Of a stretch of 62,786 nt of DNA, positions 9,973 to 62,786 are shown one piece after another (within the stretch, counting starts at the first letter, position 1; each line of letters begins with the position of its first letter). The position numbers were made by a program, and so were the translations under genes. A model generated the notes under the pieces. The model was given only the letters and a program-made list of their open reading frames with translations, was not told the DNA's origin and did no database searches. This DNA comes from Candidatus Magasanikiibacteriota bacterium. GTDB taxonomy: Bacteria; Patescibacteriota; Patescibacteriia; Magasanikbacterales; GWA2-37-8. The stretch covers positions 1-62,786 of the forward strand of contig JAHFHZ010000002.1 of assembly GCA_023246715.1 (NCBI GenBank), in the 5' to 3' direction.

Positions 9973-11100
9973 TTATTTAGTAATAATCGTATGATACGCC
10001 GTGGAGACAGCCTGGTCAACGGATACGTTCAGCCGGGTTTCAAGCGCCTCGACATGGCCAGTTTGGACACTGGTTTTGGGGTGTTTAGCCACGAATAAAC
10101 TACAACAATCTTCGTAGGGGCGCTCAGAAATAGCGAGCGTACCGATCCGTCGCGCCCAATCGGTAATTTCGCGCTTAGTGGTGCCAATAAGCGGCGACAG
10201 GATTAACAGCGCTGTAGCGCTATAAACCGCCGCCAAGTTGGAAAGCGTTTGCGACGCCACCTGCCCCAGGCTATCACCAGTCACCAACGCCTCAGCGCCA
10301 ATCCGCCGGGCAATTTGCGTAGCAATGCGCAGCATTACCCGCCGAGTGATCAACATCCGGTAGGTTGAGGGTATGTGCATAATCACCTGGCGCTGCATAT
10401 CGGCAAAAGGCACAATATAAAGTTCTACCTGTGGTTGGAAACGGGCGAGTGTTTTTGCCAGATCAATAATTTTTTCTGATACCGCGGCGGTAACCTGGGT
10501 TTGATTTTGAAAGTGCACCAGCACCACTTCGGCACCGCGCTTCATCAACGAGTAGCTAGCCACCGGACTATCGATGCCGCCAGAAAGAAGGCTAACGACT
10601 TTACCCGAACTGCCCGTAGGCAGCCCGCCAACACCACTCGTGGCAGCCATCGCGAGGACCGCCTCTTCACGGCCAATAAAAATTTCGATTTCTAATTCAA
10701 AATTTTTTAGATCAACTTTCCAGCCATACTGTTCATTAATAAACGCTCCGAGTTCACGAACGATTTGAAGTGAATTCAGTGCAAAAGATTTGTCGGAGCG
10801 CGAACAGGTCAGGCGGAACGATTGGGTTTTTGCGTTACGCAACAATTCGTTTAATCCATTCTTTATTTTTGCTATATCCGGCTGTACTAAAACAGCCTCA
10901 GCAACTTTGGCCACACCCGGGATAAGAGAGAGTTCACCGAGTGAGTCTGGTGAAATATCTTGCACAAAAAGGCCGCACGAAAGGCGGCGAGCACGACAAC
11001 CCGAAAATAACGCGCGGATATTGCGTAGTAATTGATCGACAAAATCAGACTGATTATTCCCTTTGAGCATCACTTCATCAAGCCGGAGCAGCGCGTTCAT
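9973..11100 (-). CDS. thiI: tRNA 4-thiouridine synthase ThiI (no rhodanese domain)
   Basis: PP-loop motif SGGIDSPVA, an N-terminal THUMP-like region, 375 aa. Confidence 0.85.
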   Translation of the reverse strand: MNALLRLDEVMLKGNNQSDFVDQLLRNIRALFSGCRARRLSCGLFVQDISPDSLGELSLIPGVAKVAEAVLVQPDIAKIKNGLNELLRNAKTQSFRLTCSRSDKSFALNSLQIVRELGAFINEQYGWKVDLKNFELEIEIFIGREEAVLAMAATSGVGGLPTGSSGKVVSLLSGGIDSPVASYSLMKRGAEVVLVHFQNQTQVTAAVSEKIIDLAKTLARFQPQVELYIVPFADMQRQVIMHIPSTYRMLITRRVMLRIATQIARRIGAEALVTGDSLGQVASQTLSNLAAVYSATALLILSPLIGTTKREITDWARRIGTLAISERPYEDCCSLFVAKHPKTSVQTGHVEALETRLNVSVDQAVSTAYHTIITK

Positions 11101-11105
11101 AGGCC

Positions 11106-11927
11106 TTAGATAATAATAACCGGAAAAATATTTTGGTTGATTCTAGCGAGCAGAGCCGCCGGATCAAGCGCGGATTGCAGACCTCTACCGAGCGCTTGGA
11201 TCAGCGCGGCGTCCGGGTTCAGCCCTAACGCCAGATTTTTATACTTCCCCAGATACATGAGCAAATTGGGCCAGAAAAAATGCAGATACCTATCCCCCTC
11301 CTGGCGAGTTGTTTGCAAACTCTGTAATAATTCCGTTTGCATTTCGGGCGCTATCTTGGTTACAGGGTCCACAAGCATTTGCCTGGTAGCGACGAGCTGG
11401 GGAGAAAGCCCTGATTCGTCTTTAGCAAACAGATAGCGGCGTGAAAAAAACTGCGGTGGCTGATTTTTGCTTATTAAAAACAATTGAGCAATAGCGAGTT
11501 GATGCGCGCTTTTCTGAAAGGCTCGCGTTTGTTCGGCTTGGTTCGCGGCGCAGCGCGATTTTAACAAATAATAGTAACCAAACTTAAGGGAATTACGAAA
11601 AATGATTGCTGCATTTAGCGCCGAAACATGACTTTGTCCAGAAACGTCGTGGCCATAGATGTAATACCAGCCGCGTTTAAAAAAACTACGCGGAACAAGC
11701 ATTACACTGATTGGCGCGGCAGGAAAAAGCGCTCGGACAGCAGCAAGTTGCCTCGCGTATTTTTTTCTTTGGAAAAAAGTTACCCACGAACAGAGGACGT
11801 AAAAATCGATATCGCTGTACTGCGTCGCCTCGCCATAGACATAACTCCCGCCCAAAAGGACGGGAGTATGACCGAATATTTTTTGAATTTGTTGATGTAA
11901 TTGAACAACAACCGGCTCGGTAAACAT
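11106..11927 (-). CDS. Pol-beta-superfamily nucleotidyltransferase domain protein
   Basis: N-terminal GGSYVYGEATQYSDIDFYV matches the G[GS]-x(9-13)-DxD NTase motif. The helical C-terminal half is unassigned. Confidence 0.5.
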   Translation of the reverse strand: MFTEPVVVQLHQQIQKIFGHTPVLLGGSYVYGEATQYSDIDFYVLCSWVTFFQRKKYARQLAAVRALFPAAPISVMLVPRSFFKRGWYYIYGHDVSGQSHVSALNAAIIFRNSLKFGYYYLLKSRCAANQAEQTRAFQKSAHQLAIAQLFLISKNQPPQFFSRRYLFAKDESGLSPQLVATRQMLVDPVTKIAPEMQTELLQSLQTTRQEGDRYLHFFWPNLLMYLGKYKNLALGLNPDAALIQALGRGLQSALDPAALLARINQNIFPVIII

Positions 11928-13300: not shown

Positions 13301-14302
13301 CTATTTTTTTAGCGTGGTAATCGGCCGGCTCTGGGTTATAAAAAATTGGTTATTGGCAAAAGCCCATTCAATATCGCACGGGAATCCGTAATGCTGTTCA
13401 ATCTGGCAGCACAGTTTAGCCAGCTCTAACACTTGCGGAGCGGATAGTTTTTGCTTGGAGCCTTCGGCTTCGGAAAGCTCGATCCAGTGATTAATTTCCC
13501 CGTCTTTGAGCTGGCCCGCGCCATGCACGAGGTGTTTATTTTGCGTACTGACGTAGACATCCATCAGCTCCATTTTCTTTTTACTCACGATATAGCTATC
13601 GGGCGTAATCTGCCCGCTGACGATTGCTTCACCCAGGCCGAAACCCGCTTCGATGATGAGCTGATCGTAATCTTCGGTGACCGGGTGCACCGTAAAGCAG
13701 ATGCCCGAAATTTCGGACTGCACCATTTGCTGCACCACCACGGCTACCGAGACCTGCGTGTCGATCAGATTTTTTTCGTGGCGGTAAAAAATCGCTCGGG
13801 GAGTGAACAGCGAACTCCAGCATTTTTTAACCATCTCGGCCACGTTTTCGCGAGTGGTATTAAGATACGTTTCCAGCTCTCCCGCCCAGCTAGCGATTTC
13901 GGAATCTTCGGCCGTGGCGCTGGAGCGTACCGCCACGTGCTCGGCGCCCAGCTGGTCGAAGGCAACCAGAATTTCGGCGGTTAAATCCGCAGGCATCGCC
14001 CGGTCGTGAATCACATCGCGCAAAATATTGCTGGCGCGATCAACGGAATTCGTATCGGCCGGGTTAACTTCGGCCAAGCGCGCGGCAATTTCTTCTTTCA
14101 GTTCGGTCTCTTCGATAAAGCGATCAAAGGCACTGGCTAACACAATAAAACCCGGCGGAACACTAATTCCGGCCTGGGTCATTTCGCCAAGTGAAGCGCC
14201 TTTGCCCCCGGCGATAGCGACATCGGTTTTGGAAATATCTTTGAAAAATTTTAAATGAGGCATAACAGGGCTTAGCTTAGCACTGGGGATAAAAAGTTTC
14301 AA
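13301..14302 (-). CDS. Stand-alone PEP/pyruvate-binding (PPDK_N) ATP-grasp module of the PpsA family
   Basis: N-terminal DVAIAGGKGASLGEMTQAGISVPPGFIV and C-terminal FFITQSRPIT are the typical ends of the PpsA/PPDK nucleotide-binding domain. The ORF stops there (333 aa), with no swivel or TIM-barrel domain. Confidence 0.85.
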   Translation of the reverse strand: MKLFIPSAKLSPVMPHLKFFKDISKTDVAIAGGKGASLGEMTQAGISVPPGFIVLASAFDRFIEETELKEEIAARLAEVNPADTNSVDRASNILRDVIHDRAMPADLTAEILVAFDQLGAEHVAVRSSATAEDSEIASWAGELETYLNTTRENVAEMVKKCWSSLFTPRAIFYRHEKNLIDTQVSVAVVVQQMVQSEISGICFTVHPVTEDYDQLIIEAGFGLGEAIVSGQITPDSYIVSKKKMELMDVYVSTQNKHLVHGAGQLKDGEINHWIELSEAEGSKQKLSAPQVLELAKLCCQIEQHYGFPCDIEWAFANNQFFITQSRPITTLKK

Positions 14303-14319
14303 TCCTGGCTATAAAAAAA

Positions 14320-14535
14320 TTAATTTACCACTACGATTCCGTCATCACCATTCAATTCCACCATTTGCCCCTCGCGCACGTGTTCTAAAAAATTTTCCGG
14401 CAACCCGACAACTGCTGGTTTATTATTTTCGCGCGCGGTGATCGCGGCATGACTGGTAACCCCGCCGTGCACGACGATAACACCTTTAACCATTGCGGCT
14501 AAGGCAGCGCTCGGCTTTACCTTGTCCAAAACCAC
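14320..14535 (-). CDS. PEP-utilizer mobile (swivel) domain fragment, C-terminal half only; possible gene remnant
   Basis: 71-aa ORF containing GGVTSHAAITARENNKPAVVG. It lacks the upstream G-x-A-x-G...ILV...T-P half seen in the four full paralogs. Confidence 0.55.
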   Translation of the reverse strand: MVLDKVKPSAALAAMVKGVIVVHGGVTSHAAITARENNKPAVVGLPENFLEHVREGQMVELNGDDGIVVVN

Positions 14536-14540
14536 AAAGT

Positions 14541-14592
14541 GAAAGATGCTCTAGTTATCTTTAGAGTTAAAAAGCGCACTAGAGCATCTTTC
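14541..14592. repeat. Perfect 15-bp inverted repeat with a 22-nt loop
   Basis: gaaagatgctctagt (14541-14555) is the exact reverse complement of actagagcatctttc (14578-14592). It lies between the swivel fragment start and the high-GC cassette. Confidence 0.8.
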
Positions 14593-14655
14593 AACGGCTT
14601 GGTTAGGAAGTAAGGGTTGAATTCCCTTGAGCTGGCTAAGCAGACAGGAGCGTTC

Positions 14656-15270
14656 ATGAAGATCAGGTGGACTGTGATACCCCATGGCCGAAAGAAGGCG
14701 GTGCGGGACCTGGCCCCAGGCACCGACCCGAGCAATCCGCCCCTCACCGATGAGGCGCGGCGTGACGCGGCGACTCTTGCTGAGACGCTCGCCGAGCTGC
14801 ACGGGCGGCCGGACATCATTTTCGTGTCTACTCGCATTCGGGCCCAGCAGACGGCAGAGCGCGCCATCGAGCTCTTTGGCCGGCACGAGCTCGACGGCTG
14901 CCCGGTCGTGGCGATCAACCTGCTCGGACAGCCCGACAGCGGGGACCTCGACCGCAGCCACCCCCAGGCGGATGCCGACGGACTGGTGTGCTACGGGCAG
15001 CGGACGAACGACCCCCAGTGGCTCGATTGGACCCGTCAGGCCCGACGCCTGATGATCGGCATGATCGGGGAAATGTTCGAACCGCCCCGGCCGCTCCAGG
15101 CCTGGGTCTTCGGGCACCGCCCGACCGCTGGCGCCTTCCGCTGGCTCGCCACCAACGGGCCCAACCAGCTCCCGGCCGACGGCGAGCTGAAGGTCCTCGA
15201 CCCCTGTCTGCTGCCGTATCTCTTCTTCGCCGAGAGCGAGGTGGGGGGCCTGCGGCTCATCCCGCGCTAG
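14656..15270 (+). CDS. Histidine phosphatase superfamily protein (SixA/PGM branch) on a high-GC cassette
   Basis: Ordered blocks IRWTVIPHGRK, PLTDEARRDAATLAETL, IFVSTRIRAQQTAERA and VFGHRPT match the branch-1 histidine phosphatase layout. An AGGAG lies 7 nt upstream of the ATG at 14656. It is the only plus-strand gene in a 25-kb minus-strand run. Confidence 0.65.
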   Translation: MKIRWTVIPHGRKKAVRDLAPGTDPSNPPLTDEARRDAATLAETLAELHGRPDIIFVSTRIRAQQTAERAIELFGRHELDGCPVVAINLLGQPDSGDLDRSHPQADADGLVCYGQRTNDPQWLDWTRQARRLMIGMIGEMFEPPRPLQAWVFGHRPTAGAFRWLATNGPNQLPADGELKVLDPCLLPYLFFAESEVGGLRLIPR

Positions 15271-15322
15271 CCAGAGCCTGAAGAACGCCCTTCTCTACCA
15301 CTTCTGACCCTCAACGCGCACT

Positions 15323-15349
15323 GCCCTCCCGGAACTCTACCGGGAGGGC
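15323..15349 (+). terminator. GC-rich hairpin downstream of the phosphatase gene
   Basis: gccctcccgg / ccgggagggc form a 10-bp stem with a 7-nt loop, followed by ttctgcatttt. It also lies 10 nt past the stop of the minus-strand gene 15359-16453. Confidence 0.5.
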
Positions 15350-15358
15350 TTCTGCATT

Positions 15359-16453
15359 TTAAGCGGGAGTTAATTTTCTAATTGTGCCAGTGGCGGCATC
15401 AACTTCAACGAGTTCGCCATCTTTAAAAACATGCGTGGCGTGCTTGGTGCCAATTATGCAAGGCTTCTGCAACTCACGCGCGACAATAGCCGCGTGACAG
15501 AGTAATCCTCCTTCGTTGGTAACAAAAGCGGCCGCCCGCTTCATGATGGGCAAATAGCTGGGATCGGTCATTTGCGAAACAATTATTTCACCATCTTTAA
15601 AATTTTCCATATCCTGGCGGGCGCGGACAACACGCACATACCCCGTGACGAGACCAGGGAAAGCGGTTTGGCCTTTGAGCTCGCTCAGTCCTTCGAGTTC
15701 GTCGCCGGGGCTAGCCAATAGTTTTTGCTCTTCAATGATCCGAAGCGCTTGGTCACCAGCAGCCAACTCCACCTGCCCGATAGCGTACTGCCGTACATAC
15801 AAGGCGCGTTTACGCTCACGCAACATCGCCGGGCTTGGCAACACCGCGCCAGTGGTTATGTAGGCCGCCAGTTCACGCCCCAGCAAATAGCACAATTCCT
15901 CCCCAGTGTAAGCAGGTAATTTATTTTTTGCGAGCCAGGCAGTATAGCGCGGGATGAACTTCATTTCGCCGTCTTTATAAATTACCTCGCCGCGGCGACG
16001 AATTTTGGTAGCCCAGTCAATATATGCTTGCTGTATTTCTTTGGGCAACACGCCCACAAAATCAGCTGAATCCATTCCGGCATACGCAATCGGAAACAAT
16101 TCCTGGTACCAGCGGTAAAAATCCAAAAAAGTGTCTAGGCTAAAATTTGCATCATCCTGGTAAATGACCTCTTCATAGCGCGACACTTCGGCATCAAACC
16201 AATCAAAACTGGTTACCAAATTTACCTGGCCATTTTTTACTTTATTTAAAAACAGCGTGCTCACCCGTTCACGGTCCCCTATTGCCTGAAAATGAAAATA
16301 CACACCTTCTTTCACCACCGAAGGCAGCTCCACGAATGTTCCGCCGTAGGCTTCGTTTAAAATCGCCCCCGTCATCGCTTCAACCACCGAGGTAATACCA
16401 AGAATGGTATACTCCCGGCGATGACGTTCATATTTGATTTTGGACATATGCAA
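15359..16453 (-). CDS. Swivel-domain protein paralog C (unknown N-domain + C-terminal PEP-utilizer mobile domain)
   Basis: The C-terminal ~100 aa read LKGQTAFPGLVTG...IIVSQMTDPSYLPIMKRAAAFVTNEGGLLCHAAIVARELQKPCIIG. The N-terminal ~260 aa are unrecognised. Confidence 0.8.
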   Translation of the reverse strand: MHMSKIKYERHRREYTILGITSVVEAMTGAILNEAYGGTFVELPSVVKEGVYFHFQAIGDRERVSTLFLNKVKNGQVNLVTSFDWFDAEVSRYEEVIYQDDANFSLDTFLDFYRWYQELFPIAYAGMDSADFVGVLPKEIQQAYIDWATKIRRRGEVIYKDGEMKFIPRYTAWLAKNKLPAYTGEELCYLLGRELAAYITTGAVLPSPAMLRERKRALYVRQYAIGQVELAAGDQALRIIEEQKLLASPGDELEGLSELKGQTAFPGLVTGYVRVVRARQDMENFKDGEIIVSQMTDPSYLPIMKRAAAFVTNEGGLLCHAAIVARELQKPCIIGTKHATHVFKDGELVEVDAATGTIRKLTPA

Positions 16454-16457
16454 ATTG

Positions 16458-18002
16458 TTAAGACACTTTTCTAATTAGGCCTTTGGTCGCGTCAACTTCA
16501 ACTTGTTCTCCACTCACAAAAACGGCCATGGCTTTCTTGGCGCCCACAATGCAGGGAATACCCAGTTCGCGCGATACGATGGCGGCGTGACTGGTGACGC
16601 CGCCCTGCTCGGCCACCACGGCGGCCGCCTTTTTCATGAGTGGCACGAAATCCGGGGTGGTTTGATTGGTAATCAAAATCTCTCCGGCCTGAAATTGATG
16701 AAATTGGTCGCTGCCCAAAATAATCCGCGCGGTGCCCGTTACTTTGCCAGGCGAAGCAGTCATGCCTTTGAGTTCCTGCAGGCCGGAGAGATCGGGGAAA
16801 AAATTACTTAAATCAAGGTCTTTTAATTCATCGCGCAGGAAAATGGCATACCCTTGAGAGTCAAAAACAGCCAGGCAGCCGGCGCGGCGCTCGACGGTAA
16901 TATGTTGCCAGCGGGCAGGGTCTTGTAAAAATTCCTCAAGCTCGTTGAACATCACGTACTGAATCAGCTCGGGGTCAAACTGCACCAACTCGGCCAAGCG
17001 GCCCAGATAATTAATATTAAAGTGATTCAAACGAAGCACGGCCTGCTTGCGGCAATCTTGGATAAAAGTACAATCATCGGCGAATTGGACAAAAGATCGC
17101 AGCAGTGGGGTGGCGGATATTTTTTGAAACACATTTTCTTTGGCAATAACCGCCCGATGTAAGCGCTCTTGTTCTTCGGCGTATTTATGTTCAGCATCAC
17201 TCAGATTGTTTATTTCTGCGCGGACCTGTTTGGCTGTTTTGGGAAGGGCTTTGAGATAGTTATTTTCTACCCAATAATACTCCCGGACAATTTGCTCAAT
17301 CCCCGCGGCAATGTCTACCCCCTGATTCTGGCGGCAGCGCTCCGCAAGCAAACGCAACGCGTAGGAATTAACAAAGCTGCGGTGAGTGGGGGCGCGCAAT
17401 ATTTCAACATCATCTGGCGCCAACGCTTGGCCAGCGTATTTATTGACGTGATTTTTAAACCAATCGTCGTCGGAAAAACTTAATAAACAATCTACGGTAT
17501 AGCCCATCCCCTGCTCCCCAGCAGCGTTAATTAACTCGAGGAGATGTTGAACGATTTGCGCCGGAGTAAAATCTTCGAGCCGCAGCTCTTCTTCGGCGCG
17601 GGCGCGCTCATCAAACACCGCAAAACCCTGTTGATACATTTGATACAATTTTTTACCGAACTCAAGATCCTTTTCGAGAGCGGCAAATAGCTGAGCGCGC
17701 GTGGCCTGCATTTCTTTTACCGACCACTGCCAATCAAATTCGCGATCAACAACAAAGTTTTGAAACGACATCCCGTGCGGCATGCTACCAGGAATCTTTT
17801 GAGGCGCTCGAAAAATAGCGAAGTATTCTTGCACAAAAATCGGCATCATGTATGAGCCATAGTGTTTGCTGAAAAAACCCTCGTGAAGGTGTTTTTCCAA
17901 ATACGCGCGCAGACGTGTTCGATCGGCTGGCGTAGACGCGGGGATCATAAGGGGAATTTTTATTCTAAAACTTCGGGAAACAAGGTATTGGCTATGTCCC
18001 AC
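16458..18002 (-). CDS. Swivel-domain protein paralog A (unknown N-domain + C-terminal PEP-utilizer mobile domain)
   Basis: The C-terminus reads LKGMTASPGKVTG...ILITNQTTPDFVPLMKKAAAVVAEQGGVTSHAAIVSRELGIPCIVG. The N-domain carries YYWVENNY. An alternative start is possible at the internal MIPAS. Confidence 0.8.
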   Translation of the reverse strand: MGHSQYLVSRSFRIKIPLMIPASTPADRTRLRAYLEKHLHEGFFSKHYGSYMMPIFVQEYFAIFRAPQKIPGSMPHGMSFQNFVVDREFDWQWSVKEMQATRAQLFAALEKDLEFGKKLYQMYQQGFAVFDERARAEEELRLEDFTPAQIVQHLLELINAAGEQGMGYTVDCLLSFSDDDWFKNHVNKYAGQALAPDDVEILRAPTHRSFVNSYALRLLAERCRQNQGVDIAAGIEQIVREYYWVENNYLKALPKTAKQVRAEINNLSDAEHKYAEEQERLHRAVIAKENVFQKISATPLLRSFVQFADDCTFIQDCRKQAVLRLNHFNINYLGRLAELVQFDPELIQYVMFNELEEFLQDPARWQHITVERRAGCLAVFDSQGYAIFLRDELKDLDLSNFFPDLSGLQELKGMTASPGKVTGTARIILGSDQFHQFQAGEILITNQTTPDFVPLMKKAAAVVAEQGGVTSHAAIVSRELGIPCIVGAKKAMAVFVSGEQVEVDATKGLIRKVS

Positions 18003-19480: not shown

Positions 19481-21751
19481 TTAGGAGAGCTTTTCAACTG
19501 CTCCCTGAGTGATTACTTTTGGCGGCACGGCGGGGCGAGGAACGGAAGGCGGGGCTGTTGGGGTTGGCGCCAGAGCAGTCGGGACAGGAGCAATTGGTTC
19601 TACGGGCGCGGTGGGCGCGGTTACTAGCTGGGCAGTGAGTTCTGTTTTTGGAAAAATATTTAATGGCGGGGGCTTGGCCAAACCCCCTGAAGCGTTTTCG
19701 GGTCGCGGAGAAGTCGGAGAAATGGTTGGCGCGGTGGATGCTGCTGGCCGGGGGCCACTTGTTTGCGAGCTAACATTTCGATCGGCAACCGGTTTTTGTT
19801 GCTGGCGGGGTGGTTGACTTTGCGAGGAAGAATTTCCGCTACCCGAAGAGCGAGATTGGCCGCCGCGACCGCCGCCCTGGTTGCCACGACCATCACCACG
19901 ATTTGATTTATCCTTCTTTTGGCCAGGATTGTTTCCAATACCCGGATGCCTGGTAGGCTCGTTTTTCGGCAAAATACTAGAGAGTGAGATTCCCTTTTGT
20001 TCGGCATCCACCAATAGTACTTTTTCTCCGCCTGAGGGGGGTAAACCACCTGTCTTTTTGTTACGACGAGAGTCTGATGAGCCTTCGCGGCGAGACGAGC
20101 CTGAACTGGAAAATTGACCGCTGGAACTGCTTTGCGGGCGGGGTGGTTGACTGTTACCGGAACTTGTTTGCGCTTGGCGGGGCGGGGTTAGGCTCACCAA
20201 CCGAGGCGTGGGAGCCTCCACAACAGGGGCAGGGGTCGCCGGAGCGGCTGGGCGGGGCGCCGGGGTGGCAACAACGGACGGGGGGGCAGGCGGCGCGGGA
20301 GTTGTGGCAGATGGTGGCAGTGCACCCTGCGCGGCAGAGGCGGCATCTTCGGCGGCGGCAGTATTAACGACGCCAGACAATTCAGCGGTTTCTTCATCAA
20401 GGGCATCAAGCGCGTCTTCGGCCGAGAGTATCATACCACTCCAACGAGCAATTTTATCTTCGATTTTATCGCGGCTGACCGCGTAGCGCTCGCGCGATAC
20501 TTTAATTACGCGCTCCAAGCTGCCGGTGGCACTGCCGATTGGGGGCATGGTGAGGGCGCTGAACGGGCGCGAGGCCACGCCGTCGATCATTAATTTTAAA
20601 TAGGTATGAAACTTTGGCAGGTTGACCAAATCTTCTTCCACGAACGTGGGCGCAAATTCTTTGGCCAGGATTTCGGCATCGGTGGAACCAACCCGGAACA
20701 CCACCATGGTGCCGACGTTACCGATTACGGCGGCCAGTACTTTTTCGTCGAGCTGTTCCATGTACTGATGGGCCATAATCAAATCCAGGCGATATTTGCG
20801 CGCTTCAGAAAGGATGCCGGCAAAACTTTCGGTGGCAAAGTTCTGGAATTCATCGACATACAGAAAAAAATCATTACGGAGCGGCTCGGGCGTGTCGACG
20901 CGTTCCATTGCCGAGAGCTGAATTTTGGTAATTAACATGCCCCCCAGTAGGCGGGAATTATCTTCACCGATACGGCCTTTTGATAAATTGATAATAAAAA
21001 TTTTCTTGGTGTCCATTATTTCACGAATGTTGATGCGTGATTTTACCTGGGCGACAATGTTACGGATAATTGAAGCCGACAAGAATTGCCCGATTTTATT
21101 TTGGATCGGGGCCACGGCTTCCTGGCGAAACTTGTCGCTATAGCTGGCGAATTCCGTTTGCCAGAAAGCTTTCACTACCGGGTCTTTAAGGTTGGCGACC
21201 ACGCGTTTGCGATACTCAGCGTCGGCTAAAAGACGGTTAATACCAAGCAAAGTGGTACCGGGAAAATCAAGCAAGGCCAGAATGGTGTTGTTGAGAATGT
21301 ATTCCATACGGGCGCTCCAGACATCGGGCCAGATTTTTTTGAACACGCCCATGAGGCCAGAAGCCACCAAATGCCGGTATTCAGGGTTGATGGATTCCAG
21401 GATATTAAACCCGATCGGATAATCAATGTCGCAGGGATTGAAATAAACTACATCGTTGATGCGGTTCGGCGGGATAAAGTCCAGAATTTTTTCGGCAAAG
21501 TCACCGTGCGGATCGACCAAGCCGATACCATGCCCGCCATATACATCGTTAAGCACCATGTTTTCAAGGACGGTGGTTTTACCCATGCCGGTTTTGCCGA
21601 CCACGTACATATGGCGACGGCGGTCATCGAGTTTAATGCCAAAACGCCGGTTATGATTCCGGTAATTGGTGAGCCCGAAAAAGTTGATCGGATTACTGTT
21701 CGGCGCGGGCGTGGGAATGGGTTGTGGGGCACTGGAGAGAGAATCGATCAT
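19481..21751 (-). CDS. TraD/VirD4-like (type IV coupling protein / HerA-FtsK superfamily) P-loop ATPase with a long disordered C-terminal tail
   Basis: Walker A VVGKTGMGKTT and Walker B FFLYVDEFQNF are present, and no N-terminal TM helices are visible. Residues from about 445 to 756 are Pro/Ala/Ser/Gly/Gln-rich with an RGG stretch (GDGRGNQGGGRGGQ). Confidence 0.72.
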   Translation of the reverse strand: MIDSLSSAPQPIPTPAPNSNPINFFGLTNYRNHNRRFGIKLDDRRRHMYVVGKTGMGKTTVLENMVLNDVYGGHGIGLVDPHGDFAEKILDFIPPNRINDVVYFNPCDIDYPIGFNILESINPEYRHLVASGLMGVFKKIWPDVWSARMEYILNNTILALLDFPGTTLLGINRLLADAEYRKRVVANLKDPVVKAFWQTEFASYSDKFRQEAVAPIQNKIGQFLSASIIRNIVAQVKSRINIREIMDTKKIFIINLSKGRIGEDNSRLLGGMLITKIQLSAMERVDTPEPLRNDFFLYVDEFQNFATESFAGILSEARKYRLDLIMAHQYMEQLDEKVLAAVIGNVGTMVVFRVGSTDAEILAKEFAPTFVEEDLVNLPKFHTYLKLMIDGVASRPFSALTMPPIGSATGSLERVIKVSRERYAVSRDKIEDKIARWSGMILSAEDALDALDEETAELSGVVNTAAAEDAASAAQGALPPSATTPAPPAPPSVVATPAPRPAAPATPAPVVEAPTPRLVSLTPPRQAQTSSGNSQPPRPQSSSSGQFSSSGSSRREGSSDSRRNKKTGGLPPSGGEKVLLVDAEQKGISLSSILPKNEPTRHPGIGNNPGQKKDKSNRGDGRGNQGGGRGGQSRSSGSGNSSSQSQPPRQQQKPVADRNVSSQTSGPRPAASTAPTISPTSPRPENASGGLAKPPPLNIFPKTELTAQLVTAPTAPVEPIAPVPTALAPTPTAPPSVPRPAVPPKVITQGAVEKLS

Positions 21752-46459: not shown

Positions 46460-47932
46460 TTAACTAAGCTTCCTGACAATGCCTTGCTCAGCGTCGACTT
46501 CAATACTATCTCCATCTTTTAAAACCTGGGTGGCAATTTTAGTGCCAATAATGCAGGGCTTTTGCAACTCCCGAGAAACTAAAGCCGCGTGGCTGAGCAA
46601 TCCGCCAATATCGGTTACAATCGCCGCCGCCTTTTTCATTAGGGGGATAAAATCAGGACTGGTCATCGGGGTAACAAGTATATCGCCTTCATTCATTTTA
46701 TCCAAATTTTCTGGAACAATAAAAATTTTTGCCTTACCTCTCGCCTTGCCCGGGGCAGCCACGGTACCGCGAAACTCTCGCACCGCCGCCGTACTTTTGG
46801 CAGGGATAAAGGTATTGATTAATTCCTGAACTTCAAGCGGATTGTCGATAATATTTTCTTCACCGGCACTCATTAGCACGCAATAATTTTTATTACGATA
46901 AGCGACTGATTCTCGGGACAGAACGGTTTTGTTATCGAGAGCAGCGCAAATTTCGGTAGGGGTGAAATAAAGTAACTCTCTATAGGATAAACCGAAGCGG
47001 CTGGCAATGGCGGCCAACAATGGACGCGCTTGAAACGCCAAAATATCAAACATCTCGGGGGTATATTGTCTTAACCAGGCTATTTCAGCGCTCTGTTTAA
47101 TGACAAAATCCAGCTCTTTGGGGAGGTGGTCGGGATACTCACGAGGAGTTTTTTGTTCAAGGAAGGGCAGTTCTGACAAGAATTTTTCTATTGAGAGCGG
47201 TTCGCCCCAGAAATGATGCGTGCCTATCCATTGATATTTTTCGACATGGCGTTGAACGGCGGCAAACAAGTCTGGATCGGCCTTTATTCTCGTTAATCCG
47301 ATGGAAGTCGAATTGTTAAGCTCTGGTAACAAATTTTTTTCTTCCAGTTGCCGTTTTATACTTAACGCTTCAGCATGCTCTTGAATCATGATGGTCGTTT
47401 GCTTTGGAATGGAGGCAGCAACATCGGTGGCCGAGCAGCCTAATTCGCGGGCTTTAACCAAAATTATTTCTCCCAGATGGTCTGATAAAATCAGTCCGGA
47501 ATACCAAGGAACCATCAGGCGTGTTAGCGCGGCGATACAAGCTTTGAATAACGGCAAATCAATCGCGGCGCATTTTTGCAGTTGCCTGATCAATTTTTGA
47601 TTTTCAGCAAAAATCTGCTTGGCTGAAACGGTTAAATTAGTAAAAAAATCCTCATCTTTGGCCTGGCAAGCACGCTCTAATTCTGCTTGTAATAGTTCTA
47701 AATCGCCTCGGTGCACTAAATGATGCCCGTTAATTAAAAAAATCCGCCCGTCTAACTTGGGAAGCCCAAGTTGTAAAGCGGTTTTTTCTTCGTACCACCG
47801 CGCCCAAAACCAAGCGGAAAAAGGAGGCTGTTCCCATTGACCGTAATAAAACCAATCTTCAGGCCGAAGGTTGAGTTTGTACAGGATTCGAACTCTGGGA
47901 GAATAGTCATTTTGAATTGCGTTAATGCTCAT
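46460..47932 (-). CDS. Swivel-domain protein paralog D (unknown N-domain + C-terminal PEP-utilizer mobile domain)
   Basis: The C-terminus reads FRGTVAAPGKARG...ILVTPMTSPDFIPLMKKAAAIVTDIGGLLSHAALVSRELQKPCIIG. The N-domain block KYQWIGTHHFWGEP aligns by eye with YWVENNY in paralogs A and B. Confidence 0.8.
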   Translation of the reverse strand: MSINAIQNDYSPRVRILYKLNLRPEDWFYYGQWEQPPFSAWFWARWYEEKTALQLGLPKLDGRIFLINGHHLVHRGDLELLQAELERACQAKDEDFFTNLTVSAKQIFAENQKLIRQLQKCAAIDLPLFKACIAALTRLMVPWYSGLILSDHLGEIILVKARELGCSATDVAASIPKQTTIMIQEHAEALSIKRQLEEKNLLPELNNSTSIGLTRIKADPDLFAAVQRHVEKYQWIGTHHFWGEPLSIEKFLSELPFLEQKTPREYPDHLPKELDFVIKQSAEIAWLRQYTPEMFDILAFQARPLLAAIASRFGLSYRELLYFTPTEICAALDNKTVLSRESVAYRNKNYCVLMSAGEENIIDNPLEVQELINTFIPAKSTAAVREFRGTVAAPGKARGKAKIFIVPENLDKMNEGDILVTPMTSPDFIPLMKKAAAIVTDIGGLLSHAALVSRELQKPCIIGTKIATQVLKDGDSIEVDAEQGIVRKLS

Positions 47933-62200: not shown

Positions 62201-62220
62201 GTATACCACTGGTGGTATAC
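62201..62220. promoter_or_regulatory. 20-bp palindrome immediately upstream of the ECF sigma start codon
   Basis: GTATACCAC-TG-GTGGTATAC has perfect 9-bp arms. It is separated from the ATG at 62193 only by an A7 run. Confidence 0.35.
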
Positions 62221-62293
62221 GCACGGCAACGGTTGTTTGGGAAACCGCTTATTTTTGGCACAAGCAACTTGCGAACAAAACAAGGGGCGCGGG

Positions 62294-62316
62294 CAGCTGG
62301 CAACGGGTGCCAGCTG
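62294..62316 (-). terminator. Hairpin downstream of the high-GC edge ORF
   Basis: cagctggca-acggg-tgccagctg: a 9-bp stem ~25 nt past the stop at 62342-62344. The downstream minus-strand sequence is only weakly T-rich. Confidence 0.4.
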
Positions 62317-62341
62317 GCCGCAGGGGGGGGTGGGTGACAGG

Positions 62342-62785
62342 TTACTCGTTTGGCTGGGCGGGCGGCAGGGGCAGGCTCTGCACCTGGGCGCGGCAGAACG
62401 CGGCACCGTCAGTGCCGCCCATCGCCACGCCTACCGCCTGCTCGCGGGTGTGATCCCGGCCGTCGGCGACGGGCTCCGGGGGCAGCTGCGGCAGCGTCCA
62501 GTGATCCTGGCTCGAGCCGATGCCCTTGATGTACAGCTCTGTCCGACAGCCACCACCCCAGAAAATGGCGTAGGCGTATATCGCCCATGGGCCCGCCTGC
62601 TGGACCTCCTTGGGGATCACCAGGACGTGGCGGGGGCGGGCGGTGGCCGTGGCGGCCAGCGCCCGCAGGCACTGGTTGCGCTTCGGCCCCTTCTTTTTGG
62701 GACACTTCTGGGGCGGGGGCGGCAGGGCGGCGAGCTCGTCGGCAGGAGCGCTCGGGGCGCTGAGAGCGCTGATAGCAAGGACCAA
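62342..62785 (-). CDS. Partial ORF of unknown function in about 70% GC DNA (5' end off-window)
   Basis: Open frame to the window edge; the M in the track is a TTG artefact. Pro/Ala-rich, with no recognisable motif. Overlapping alternative frames are also open, as expected in high-GC DNA. Confidence 0.35.
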   Translation of the reverse strand: MVLAISALSAPSAPADELAALPPPPQKCPKKKGPKRNQCLRALAATATARPRHVLVIPKEVQQAGPWAIYAYAIFWGGGCRTELYIKGIGSSQDHWTLPQLPPEPVADGRDHTREQAVGVAMGGTDGAAFCRAQVQSLPLPPAQPNE

Positions 62786-62786
62786 C

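Follow-up and report, generated by a model that had tools for sequence, protein, structure and literature searches.

A GC-rich histidine-phosphatase gene as a candidate accessory of a swivel-domain array in Candidatus Magasanikiibacteriota

The window, a 62,786-nucleotide contig of a Candidatus Magasanikiibacteriota bacterium (JAHFHZ010000002.1, assembly GCA_023246715.1), carries a GC-rich block at 14536-15358 with a single gene for a 204-residue histidine phosphatase, called HP204 here, among genes for phosphohistidine-carrying swivel domains (PF00391). On balance we favour the reading that the block is a self-contained one-gene unit and that HP204 is an accessory of a split array resembling phosphoenolpyruvate (PEP) synthase and rifampin phosphotransferase (RPH), from which it would remove the phosphoryl group. 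HP204 and the swivel carriers probably work together, judging from the sequences of the neighbourhoods: members of the family are carried beside swivel genes, and this marks the gene as an accessory component and not an accidental insertion. A functional tie to the swivel genes had been suggested in the initial annotation, and it has gained comparative support both from the family, in 7 of 8 informative contexts, and from other histidine phosphatases at the same site in related genomes.

The family is small. An exhaustive HMMER search of 1.84 billion representatives returned 33 relatives (34 members with the query) at 24-49% identity, and word-indexed protein searches, using the single protein or the family alignment, returned essentially the query alone. 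The looked-up sources of the members were all metagenomes, and the only names among them were those of hypothetical proteins of Candidatus Uhrbacteria. Contigs were read for 12 members, and 8 contexts were informative; 4 further contigs, of 1.6 kb or less, were too short for the neighbourhood to be judged. The immediate neighbour of the HP204 gene was a PF00391 swivel gene in seven of the eight informative contexts (Table 1), lying on the opposite strand in five of these and on the same strand in two. The neighbouring X domains, which are joined to the swivel domain in the array proteins, were non-orthologous between the contexts, so that the common denominator of the HP204 contexts is the swivel domain itself.

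The unusual composition is likewise not peculiar to the window. All 12 members were GC-richer than their flanks, by +0.04 to +0.24, and nearly all had a Shine-Dalgarno (SD) sequence; no high-GC "home" was found among the 12, every one of which lay in low-GC flanks. The GC excess and the SD are whole-family traits in low-GC hosts that do not use SD sequences. The smallest excesses, effectively host-like, were those of P0009 and P0028. The initial annotation had interpreted the block as a horizontally acquired cassette, to be doubted if close relatives carried the gene at host-like GC, and P0009, which is swivel-adjacent and distant (34-38% identity), goes part of the way towards that. The search for a donor lineage gave metagenome members only and no high-GC donor outside them. 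What stands of the cassette is therefore its self-contained form and foreign-looking composition, and what does not is a one-off import from outside, against which the restriction to low-GC contexts of the candidate phyla radiation (CPR) type, the association with swivel genes and the host-GC leaders all argue. The GC excess could arise either from continual exchange of cassettes among CPR lineages out of an unseen GC-rich pool or from a maintained bias, be it selection on the mRNA or its antisense or local mutation.

By sequence and by structural model the product is a divergent member of the branch-1 histidine-phosphatase superfamily. Pfam His_Phos_1 (PF00300) was matched with 28.3 bits against a cut-off of 21.7, over residues 25-75 only, and the AlphaFold model built with the family alignment (pLDDT 96.3, pTM 0.92) showed a PGAM-like alpha/beta fold. 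Foldseek gave a probability of 1.00 to RosC, PGAM, PGAM5, Sts-1/2 and PhoE with TM 0.55-0.66 and 10-19% identity; of 272 PDB fold matches at E <= 1e-3, the best 50 were all of the histidine-phosphatase fold, and a SixA-like Nostoc protein was also among the fold matches. The family profile matched Shb17, Sts-2 and PGAM in the PDB and then a SixA-like chain, at E values of 5e-6 to 1.5e-4. The assignment to histidine phosphatases made in the initial annotation was thereby borne out; a specific placement with SixA was not, as SixA-like chains ranked below Shb17, Sts-2 and PGAM and were not among the top fold matches. Matches spread in this way over the whole superfamily indicate no specific SixA affinity, and a specific SixA identity was rejected because no SixA model was matched and the motif reads PHG and not RHG. 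NCBIfam had no model for the family and returned only one for acid phosphatases, below its threshold (20.6 bits against 226).

Among the 11 closest members H10, K13, R62, Q65 and T66 were invariant, and H154 and R155 nearly so. R62 lies in the motif S-x-x-x-R-A-x-Q-T, and the Arg and second-His motifs align with those of Shb17. In nearly all members Pro9 stands where RHG has its Arg, the common reading being [IV]PH[GL]KK, while His10 is kept; the invariant Lys13 might substitute for the missing Arg. Besides the nucleophile, two of the three canonical residues of the pocket are thus present. A conserved, family-specific insertion of ~30 residues (~90-118) reads QPDSGD.DP..P.AD..G.V.YG. The window copy is full length and keeps all conserved family motifs except D27, which is N here.

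A recount gave exactly the G+C values counted earlier by hand, 45/60 at 14701-14760 and 28/60 at 14341-14400. The GC profile in 100-nt windows confirmed a GC-rich block, with 0.65-0.75 over ~14650-15350 and 0.43-0.54 on either side, and the coding sequence 14656-15270 had 68.9% GC against 49.7% in the window. GC at the three codon positions was 0.71/0.48/0.85 (third-position GC, or GC3, about 0.86), and the median GC3 over 59 open reading frames (ORFs) of the window was 0.52, with a standard deviation of 0.075. The values 0.71/0.48/0.85 are close to the Muto-Osawa expectation for a genome of ~69% GC, so that GC alone would suggest a fresh import. The extent first given to the block, 14536-15358, holds with a qualification: the GC-rich part begins at ~14600-14650, and 14536-14593 is at host-like GC but belongs to the phosphatase unit as its leader hairpin. 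In the ORF list the phosphatase gene was, as had been claimed, the sole plus-strand long ORF within 184-25305, all others being on the minus strand. The only other GC3 outlier among the 59 was a partial ORF in a second GC-rich island (68% GC) at the end of the window, 62201-62786. This ORF (minus strand, 62342-62785, GC3 0.86) lies directly upstream of a same-strand gene for an ECF-type (extracytoplasmic function) sigma factor, and neither long frame of the island matched Pfam. The island, which runs off the window, may be another unit of the same kind.

The unit has translation signals that its host appears to do without. The AGGAG noted in the initial annotation is present, with a gap to the ATG of 5 nt and not 7, and the earlier comparison with six host genes lacking such a motif was extended to the 59 ORFs by searching the stretch -17..-5 before each candidate start in the first 50 codons for AGGAG, GGAGG or GAGGT. 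A strong SD was found in 2 of the 59, one of the two being the phosphatase gene, so that the host is essentially without SD use. Two hairpins precede the SD. The first is followed on the minus strand by a T-rich run (CTTTGTGGTTTT), and the fold z was -5.7 for the whole leader on the plus strand and -7.1 for this hairpin alone on the minus strand. Homologues of it were found at similar distances from the start in L030 (P0002) and L044 (P0006), with the loop GTTATCT..AGCGCACTA kept in all three loci and the stems wholly different yet paired; as read from these sequences, such unlike but pairing stems are strong compensatory change. A small hairpin directly 5' of the AGGAG, the second one in the window, is also present in L030, L044 and L042. 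Rfam gave no gathering-score match for the leader hairpins of the window and 7 related loci, and at E <= 1 only chance-level matches for the leader.

Downstream of the gene, the GC-rich hairpin that the initial annotation took for a terminator was found where described (fold of the 3' untranslated region (UTR), z = -4.3), and its tail shares bases with the stop codon of the convergent swivel gene. The T tract is weak, and a strict terminator scan did not call the hairpin, which we regard as a probable terminator. Members convergent on a swivel gene have a comparable spacer of 67-104 nt, with a hairpin in L034, L036 and L040. The combination of hairpins at both ends, antisense placement and a T-rich tail on the minus strand suggests, from sequence, a mutual transcriptional interference between the phosphatase gene and the array. 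Sequestration of the SD by the 3' UTR just after the stop codon, an idea that came from L034 and a 9/10 match in the window, was rejected as inconsistent across 11 members (z -2.4 to +1.5). The 3' UTRs of the two closest relatives (L030 1188-1230, L044 2420-2465) have in common the motif AAGGAAAGG(A/T)GGTGAT, the L030 form of which is a perfect extended SD (AAGGAGGTGATC) with no obvious ORF behind it.

The array around the gene is composed of one stand-alone ATP-grasp gene (PPDK_N) and several swivel genes on the minus strand. Residues 3-316 of rifampin phosphotransferase 5FBS (E 3e-58) were matched by the PPDK_N protein, which also aligns with PEP synthase, and together with the swivel ends that align with the His domains of RPH, PEP synthase, PigC and RedH this identifies the locus as a split form of that enzyme type. 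X-swivel gene 1, which converges on the phosphatase gene, 88 nt separating their stop codons, matched the C-termini of PEP synthase, RPH, PigC and RedH in NCBIfam, and X-swivel gene 2 matched positions 696-861 of RIF_Ptrans_rph. An orthologue of X-swivel gene 1 in L001 (52% identity) is also convergent with a GC-rich histidine-phosphatase gene. On the other side of the block lies a swivel remnant without ~35 N-terminal residues. A stop at 14551-14553 closes its frame, and it aligns at 56% identity with residues 36-103 of a 106-residue stand-alone swivel orthologue in L003. A fifth X-swivel gene (490 residues, 46460-47932, minus strand) lies far from the array, and no phosphatase gene was noticed beside it. 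The T4CP/VirD4-like ATPase that adjoins the array has a C-terminal tail of ~330 residues rich in Pro, Ala, Ser and Gly, which accounts for a local rise of GC to 0.57-0.61 (especially 19500-20500); between related loci the ATPase part shows 68-84% identity, a stronger conservation than that of PPDK_N.

A scan with PPDK_N as the query gave 27 loci, mostly of Candidatus Magasanikbacteria (CPR), at 55-74% identity. Several of the Magasanikbacteria-like loci L001-L003, L013, L014, L019, L023 and L027 are titled "uncultured Gammaproteobacteria" and one "Methanosarcinales archaeon", which is probably mislabelled taxonomy in the public records. In many relatives, for example L002, L004, L009, L011, L015 and L016, the last X-swivel gene directly abuts PPDK_N, whereas in L001, L003, L008, L012, L014 and L025 one to three GC-rich genes, usually antisense, lie between the two (GC3 0.65-0.91, in hosts of 40-52% GC). 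His_Phos_1 was matched above its cut-off by the same-site genes of L001, L014 and L025 (cassette 1), and the L003 gene, a partial ORF at a contig end, reached 18.4 bits against 21.7. L012 has three genes at the site, one of which, at host-like GC and on the operon strand, was also called His_Phos_1. The syntenic comparison proposed in the initial annotation thus showed the site in related genomes to be held by histidine phosphatases of other types: these proteins have canonical RHG/RHE motifs and no detectable similarity to HP204. With unrelated subfamilies at one site, the site appears to have been occupied repeatedly by histidine phosphatases, and the window has another phosphatase type than its nearest relatives, which speaks for replacement or exchange there and not for simple descent.

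The GC-rich cassettes of the relatives have features of their own. Common to them are a promoter, TTGACAAAA-N17-TATACT, and a leader stem, GTTATGG/CCATAAC, of 9 pairs, 4 of them with compensatory changes. A box just 3' of this stem has its complement in the 3' UTR, a few bases past the stop codon; in four cassettes with different boxes each box pairs with its own 3' UTR only, over 8-11 nt (shuffle counts 0-11/2000), which on sequence resembles a helix joining the 5' and 3' sides and so enclosing the entire coding region. The window copy lacks this element, and Rfam gave no match. In L025 (1560-3440) two GC-rich cassettes stand in tandem with a repeated promoter/terminator module between them. 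GC-rich one-gene islands are not confined to phosphatases, as L019, a complete chromosome of 1.23 Mb, has a GC-rich gene resembling adenine/xanthine phosphoribosyltransferases right after PPDK_N (11005-11628, minus strand) and L007 has one for a small unknown protein (16441-17000), both with their own promoter and SD. Nearly all the inspected GC-rich cassette genes of the window and related loci had a strong SD. These inspected cases were used because an automatic 2x2 test of GC3 against SD over all loci was noisy, longest-ORF calling taking wrong frames in GC-rich islands.

Table 1. Features of the phosphatase unit and its array in the window, contexts of HP204 family members, and GC-rich antisense cassettes at the same site in related loci
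Feature	Position or locus	Strand	Remarks
Branch-1 histidine-phosphatase gene (HP204)	14656-15270	+	204 codons; motif PHGRKK, R62, H154
Shine-Dalgarno AGGAG	14646-14650	+	5 nt before ATG at 14656
First leader hairpin	14540-14593	+	16-bp outer stem and apical mini-stem; host-like GC
Second leader hairpin	14597-14641	+	In minimum-free-energy and centroid structure of 14536-14658; ends just 5' of SD
3' hairpin	15323-15349	+	Perfect 10-nt arms, 7-nt loop, then TTCTGCATTTT
PPDK_N, stand-alone ATP-grasp partner	13301-14263	-	Pfam PPDK_N E 1.3e-93; NCBIfam
Swivel remnant, 71 codons	14320-14535	-	PF00391 positions 19-72 only; GGVTSH motif kept
X-swivel gene 1, 364 residues	15359-16453	-	PF00391 over 285-356; N-terminal domain unrecognised
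X-swivel gene 2, 514 residues	16458-18002	-	Pfam; PDB: PEP synthase and RPH residues 761-864
X-swivel gene 3, 478 residues	18041-19477	-	Pfam, NCBIfam
T4CP/VirD4-like ATPase	19481-21751	-	Adjoins array
HP204 beside swivel gene	Window	opposite	Convergent
HP204 beside swivel gene	P0009 (L034/L035)		Convergent
HP204 between two swivel genes	P0007 (L036)		90% cluster holds four Candidatus Uhrbacteria accessions
HP204 beside swivel gene	P0016 (L037-L039)		
HP204 between swivel genes	P0013 (L040)		Beside PPDK_N
HP204 beside swivel gene	P0037 (L042)		
HP204 beside swivel gene	P0006 (L044)		
GC-rich antisense cassettes	L001 9098-9944; L012 6768-7706, 8816-9966; L014 9054-9940		
GC-rich antisense cassettes	L025 1653-2538, 2698-3389; L003 1-458		

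The array would work in the following way. One stand-alone ATP-grasp protein would charge the His of several X + swivel proteins, which would then pass the phosphoryl group on, and HP204, with His10 as the nucleophile and a phosphate pocket made up of Arg62, His154 and the invariant Lys13, would remove the phosphoryl group put on by the array. As its target we tentatively place first, at somewhat less than an even chance, the phosphohistidine of the swivel carriers, on which HP204 would act as a brake or reset; a phosphorylated end product is ranked close behind it, as a target of nearly equal plausibility. The order follows from the fact that one phosphatase family accompanies non-orthologous X domains, and from the repeated emergence of phosphohistidine-protein phosphatases, such as SixA, in this superfamily. 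SixA dephosphorylates the phosphohistidine of NPr, in a phosphotransferase system with a swivel domain in its enzyme I (PMC6282199, PMC7948535), and also that of Ndk (PMC12934123). A more far-reaching proposal, which we consider doubtful, is that HP204 represents a so far unrecognised class of phosphohistidine phosphatases, dedicated to the swivel carriers of split PEP-synthase/RPH-like arrays of CPR bacteria and kept as a compositionally distinct, separately gated unit, with a GC excess that is selected or mechanistically maintained and not left over from a transfer. The gating could be effected by antisense interference or by signals for translation that a host without SD use would normally pass over.

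The main alternative concerning function is that HP204 is linked to the array but dephosphorylates the small-molecule product of one X-swivel enzyme, as in a kinase/phosphatase pair for a metabolite or a compound resembling an antibiotic. We think this rather unlikely. In its favour, most of the solved relatives (RosC, PhoE, PGAM, Shb17) are small-molecule phosphatases or mutases, the conserved insertion lies between strands as a possible active-site cap, the mutually unrecognisable phosphatase subfamilies at the site parallel the diversity of the X domains, and the enzymes to which the array is similar (rifampin phosphotransferase, PigC and RedH) act by phosphorylating small molecules. If specificity followed the X domain, however, one phosphatase family beside non-orthologous X domains would not be expected, and no candidate substrate is known. 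Several observations weigh against HP204 as the accessory that removes the array's phosphoryl group. No swivel gene adjoins the most distant member, P0028, on its 4.9 kb; the Pro in place of the RHG Arg in nearly all members means that catalysis may be altered; the insertion might serve as a cap over the substrate; the substrates of most branch-1 enzymes are small phosphoesters; and the occurrence of several subfamilies at the site fits product phosphatases as well as a carrier phosphatase. Finally, a scan of 14200-15600 on both strands found no promoter-like (sigma-70-like) site, and without an upstream promoter of this type the gene may be poorly expressed or decaying in the window. Relatives have a promoter of the TTGACA-N17-TATAAT type 70-260 nt upstream of the start, and in L030 and L044 this promoter and a small 5' hairpin precede the homologous leader hairpin, where the window has swivel-coding sequence. 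The swivel ORF in turn lacks Pfam positions 1-18 and is ~35 residues short in comparison with L003. The simplest reading of the sequence is that a deletion of ~240 bp at ~14536-14553 would have cost the phosphatase gene its promoter and the swivel gene its 5' end, and fused the two. That both genes are in this way becoming pseudogenes, and the unit is decaying here, is compatible with the accessory role proposed for the family but appears unlikely, given a phosphatase ORF of full length with only the D27 change. A weak site, TTGTCC-N17-GATGCT, remains at 14522, and read-through or an unrecognised type of promoter could also serve the gene. As a conserved promoter the site at 14522 was rejected, since it has 7 of 12 consensus positions and the scan needs 9; with this weak consensus and its position in swivel-coding sequence (by homology to L003), it was treated as chance or cryptic.

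The remaining alternatives concern the origin of the block. A recent chance import from an unrelated high-GC bacterium, as a passenger without a functional tie to the swivel genes, would account for the GC of 0.69 and the codon-position values, for an SD in a host that does not use it, for the opposite strand and for the other phosphatase types found at the site in the nearest relatives. We regard it as very improbable, because no relative was found outside low-GC-flanked metagenome contigs, the family numbers only 34 representatives in 1.84 billion, phage, plasmid and viral collections gave no match to an HP204 relative, swivel genes adjoin the family in nearly every informative context, and the leader hairpin is common to relatives in low-GC flanks. 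Single-protein scans gave one distant match in metagenome contigs and none in viral contigs. An assembly chimera, with a high-GC fragment wrongly placed in a low-GC contig, as raised in the initial annotation, is suggested by the sharp change of GC at both ends of the block, but its probability is negligible. The same 204-residue protein with the same neighbours, at spacings of 120 nt and 88 nt, was present in contigs from ENA (19.4 kb) and Logan (5 kb), so that three assemblies, the window contig included, agree to the base on the spacing; the terminator tail overlaps the convergent swivel stop codon, the convergent layout with its 67-104-nt spacer recurs in other lineages, and the host-GC leader is homologous to the leaders of relatives. 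A transposon, integron or MITE (miniature inverted-repeat transposable element) cassette was rejected for want of terminal inverted repeats, an attC-like site and a recombinase. The only repeat associated with the block ends is a 7-nt direct one, GCGCACT, and the called genes of the 19.4-kb ENA contig (~6 kb on one side, ~10 kb on the other) included no integrase or transposase family. A phage moron was rejected on its chromosomal neighbours, the missing promoter and the absence of viral relatives; the neighbour genes on the contig of the block are those for ProRS, ThiI, a cysteine desulfurase-like protein, PPDK_N, the swivel proteins and the T4CP-like protein. PADLOC defence models gave no match for the phosphatase, PPDK_N or swivel proteins.

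Compared with known systems, the protein is a variant of a known superfamily in an undescribed genomic partnership. It has in common with SixA the superfamily fold and the N-terminal nucleophilic His, and the role proposed for it, removal of the phosphoryl group from a His carrier, would by analogy be the same in kind as that of SixA on ArcB HPt, NPr and Ndk (PMC6282199, PMC7948535, PMC12934123). It differs from SixA in that its profile reaches a SixA-like chain only at E 1.5e-4, in its motif PHG(K/R)K against RHG, and in its 204 residues with an insertion against ~160 residues without a cap. RosC, PhoE, PGAM and Shb17 (YKR043C) are the best fold and profile matches, with the S-x-x-x-R-A-x-Q-T Arg and the second His in common, but HP204 lacks the first pocket Arg, the TM is only 0.55-0.66 and there is no common genomic context. 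The array has the ATP-grasp and swivel His parts of RPH, PEP synthase, PigC and RedH, and presumably the same chemistry from ATP over His to an acceptor; here, however, the ATP-grasp protein is separate and serves three to five paralogous X-swivel proteins, the X domains of which are mostly unrecognisable. No description of a split array with an attached phosphatase turned up in a literature search. A phage moron is likewise one gene with its own signals and terminator and an odd composition inside a co-oriented block, whereas the context here is chromosomal, of housekeeping and array genes, and the position at the side of a swivel gene is conserved across lineages.

Phosphohistidine phosphatases are few and poorly understood, and HP204, as a compact family from CPR-type contexts, would offer a further example that is directly testable. 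It would also provide a first handle on the function of the multi-paralogue X + swivel arrays of many CPR genomes, which are at present annotated together as PEP synthase or rifampin phosphotransferase. A family that is 4-24 points GC-richer than each host examined, and SD-led where host genes, at least those of the window, are not, is an unexplained compositional phenomenon, and in the case of HP204 horizontal transfer inferred from GC alone would be misleading. GC-rich genes of this kind also bear on why metagenome-assembled genomes fragment at them.

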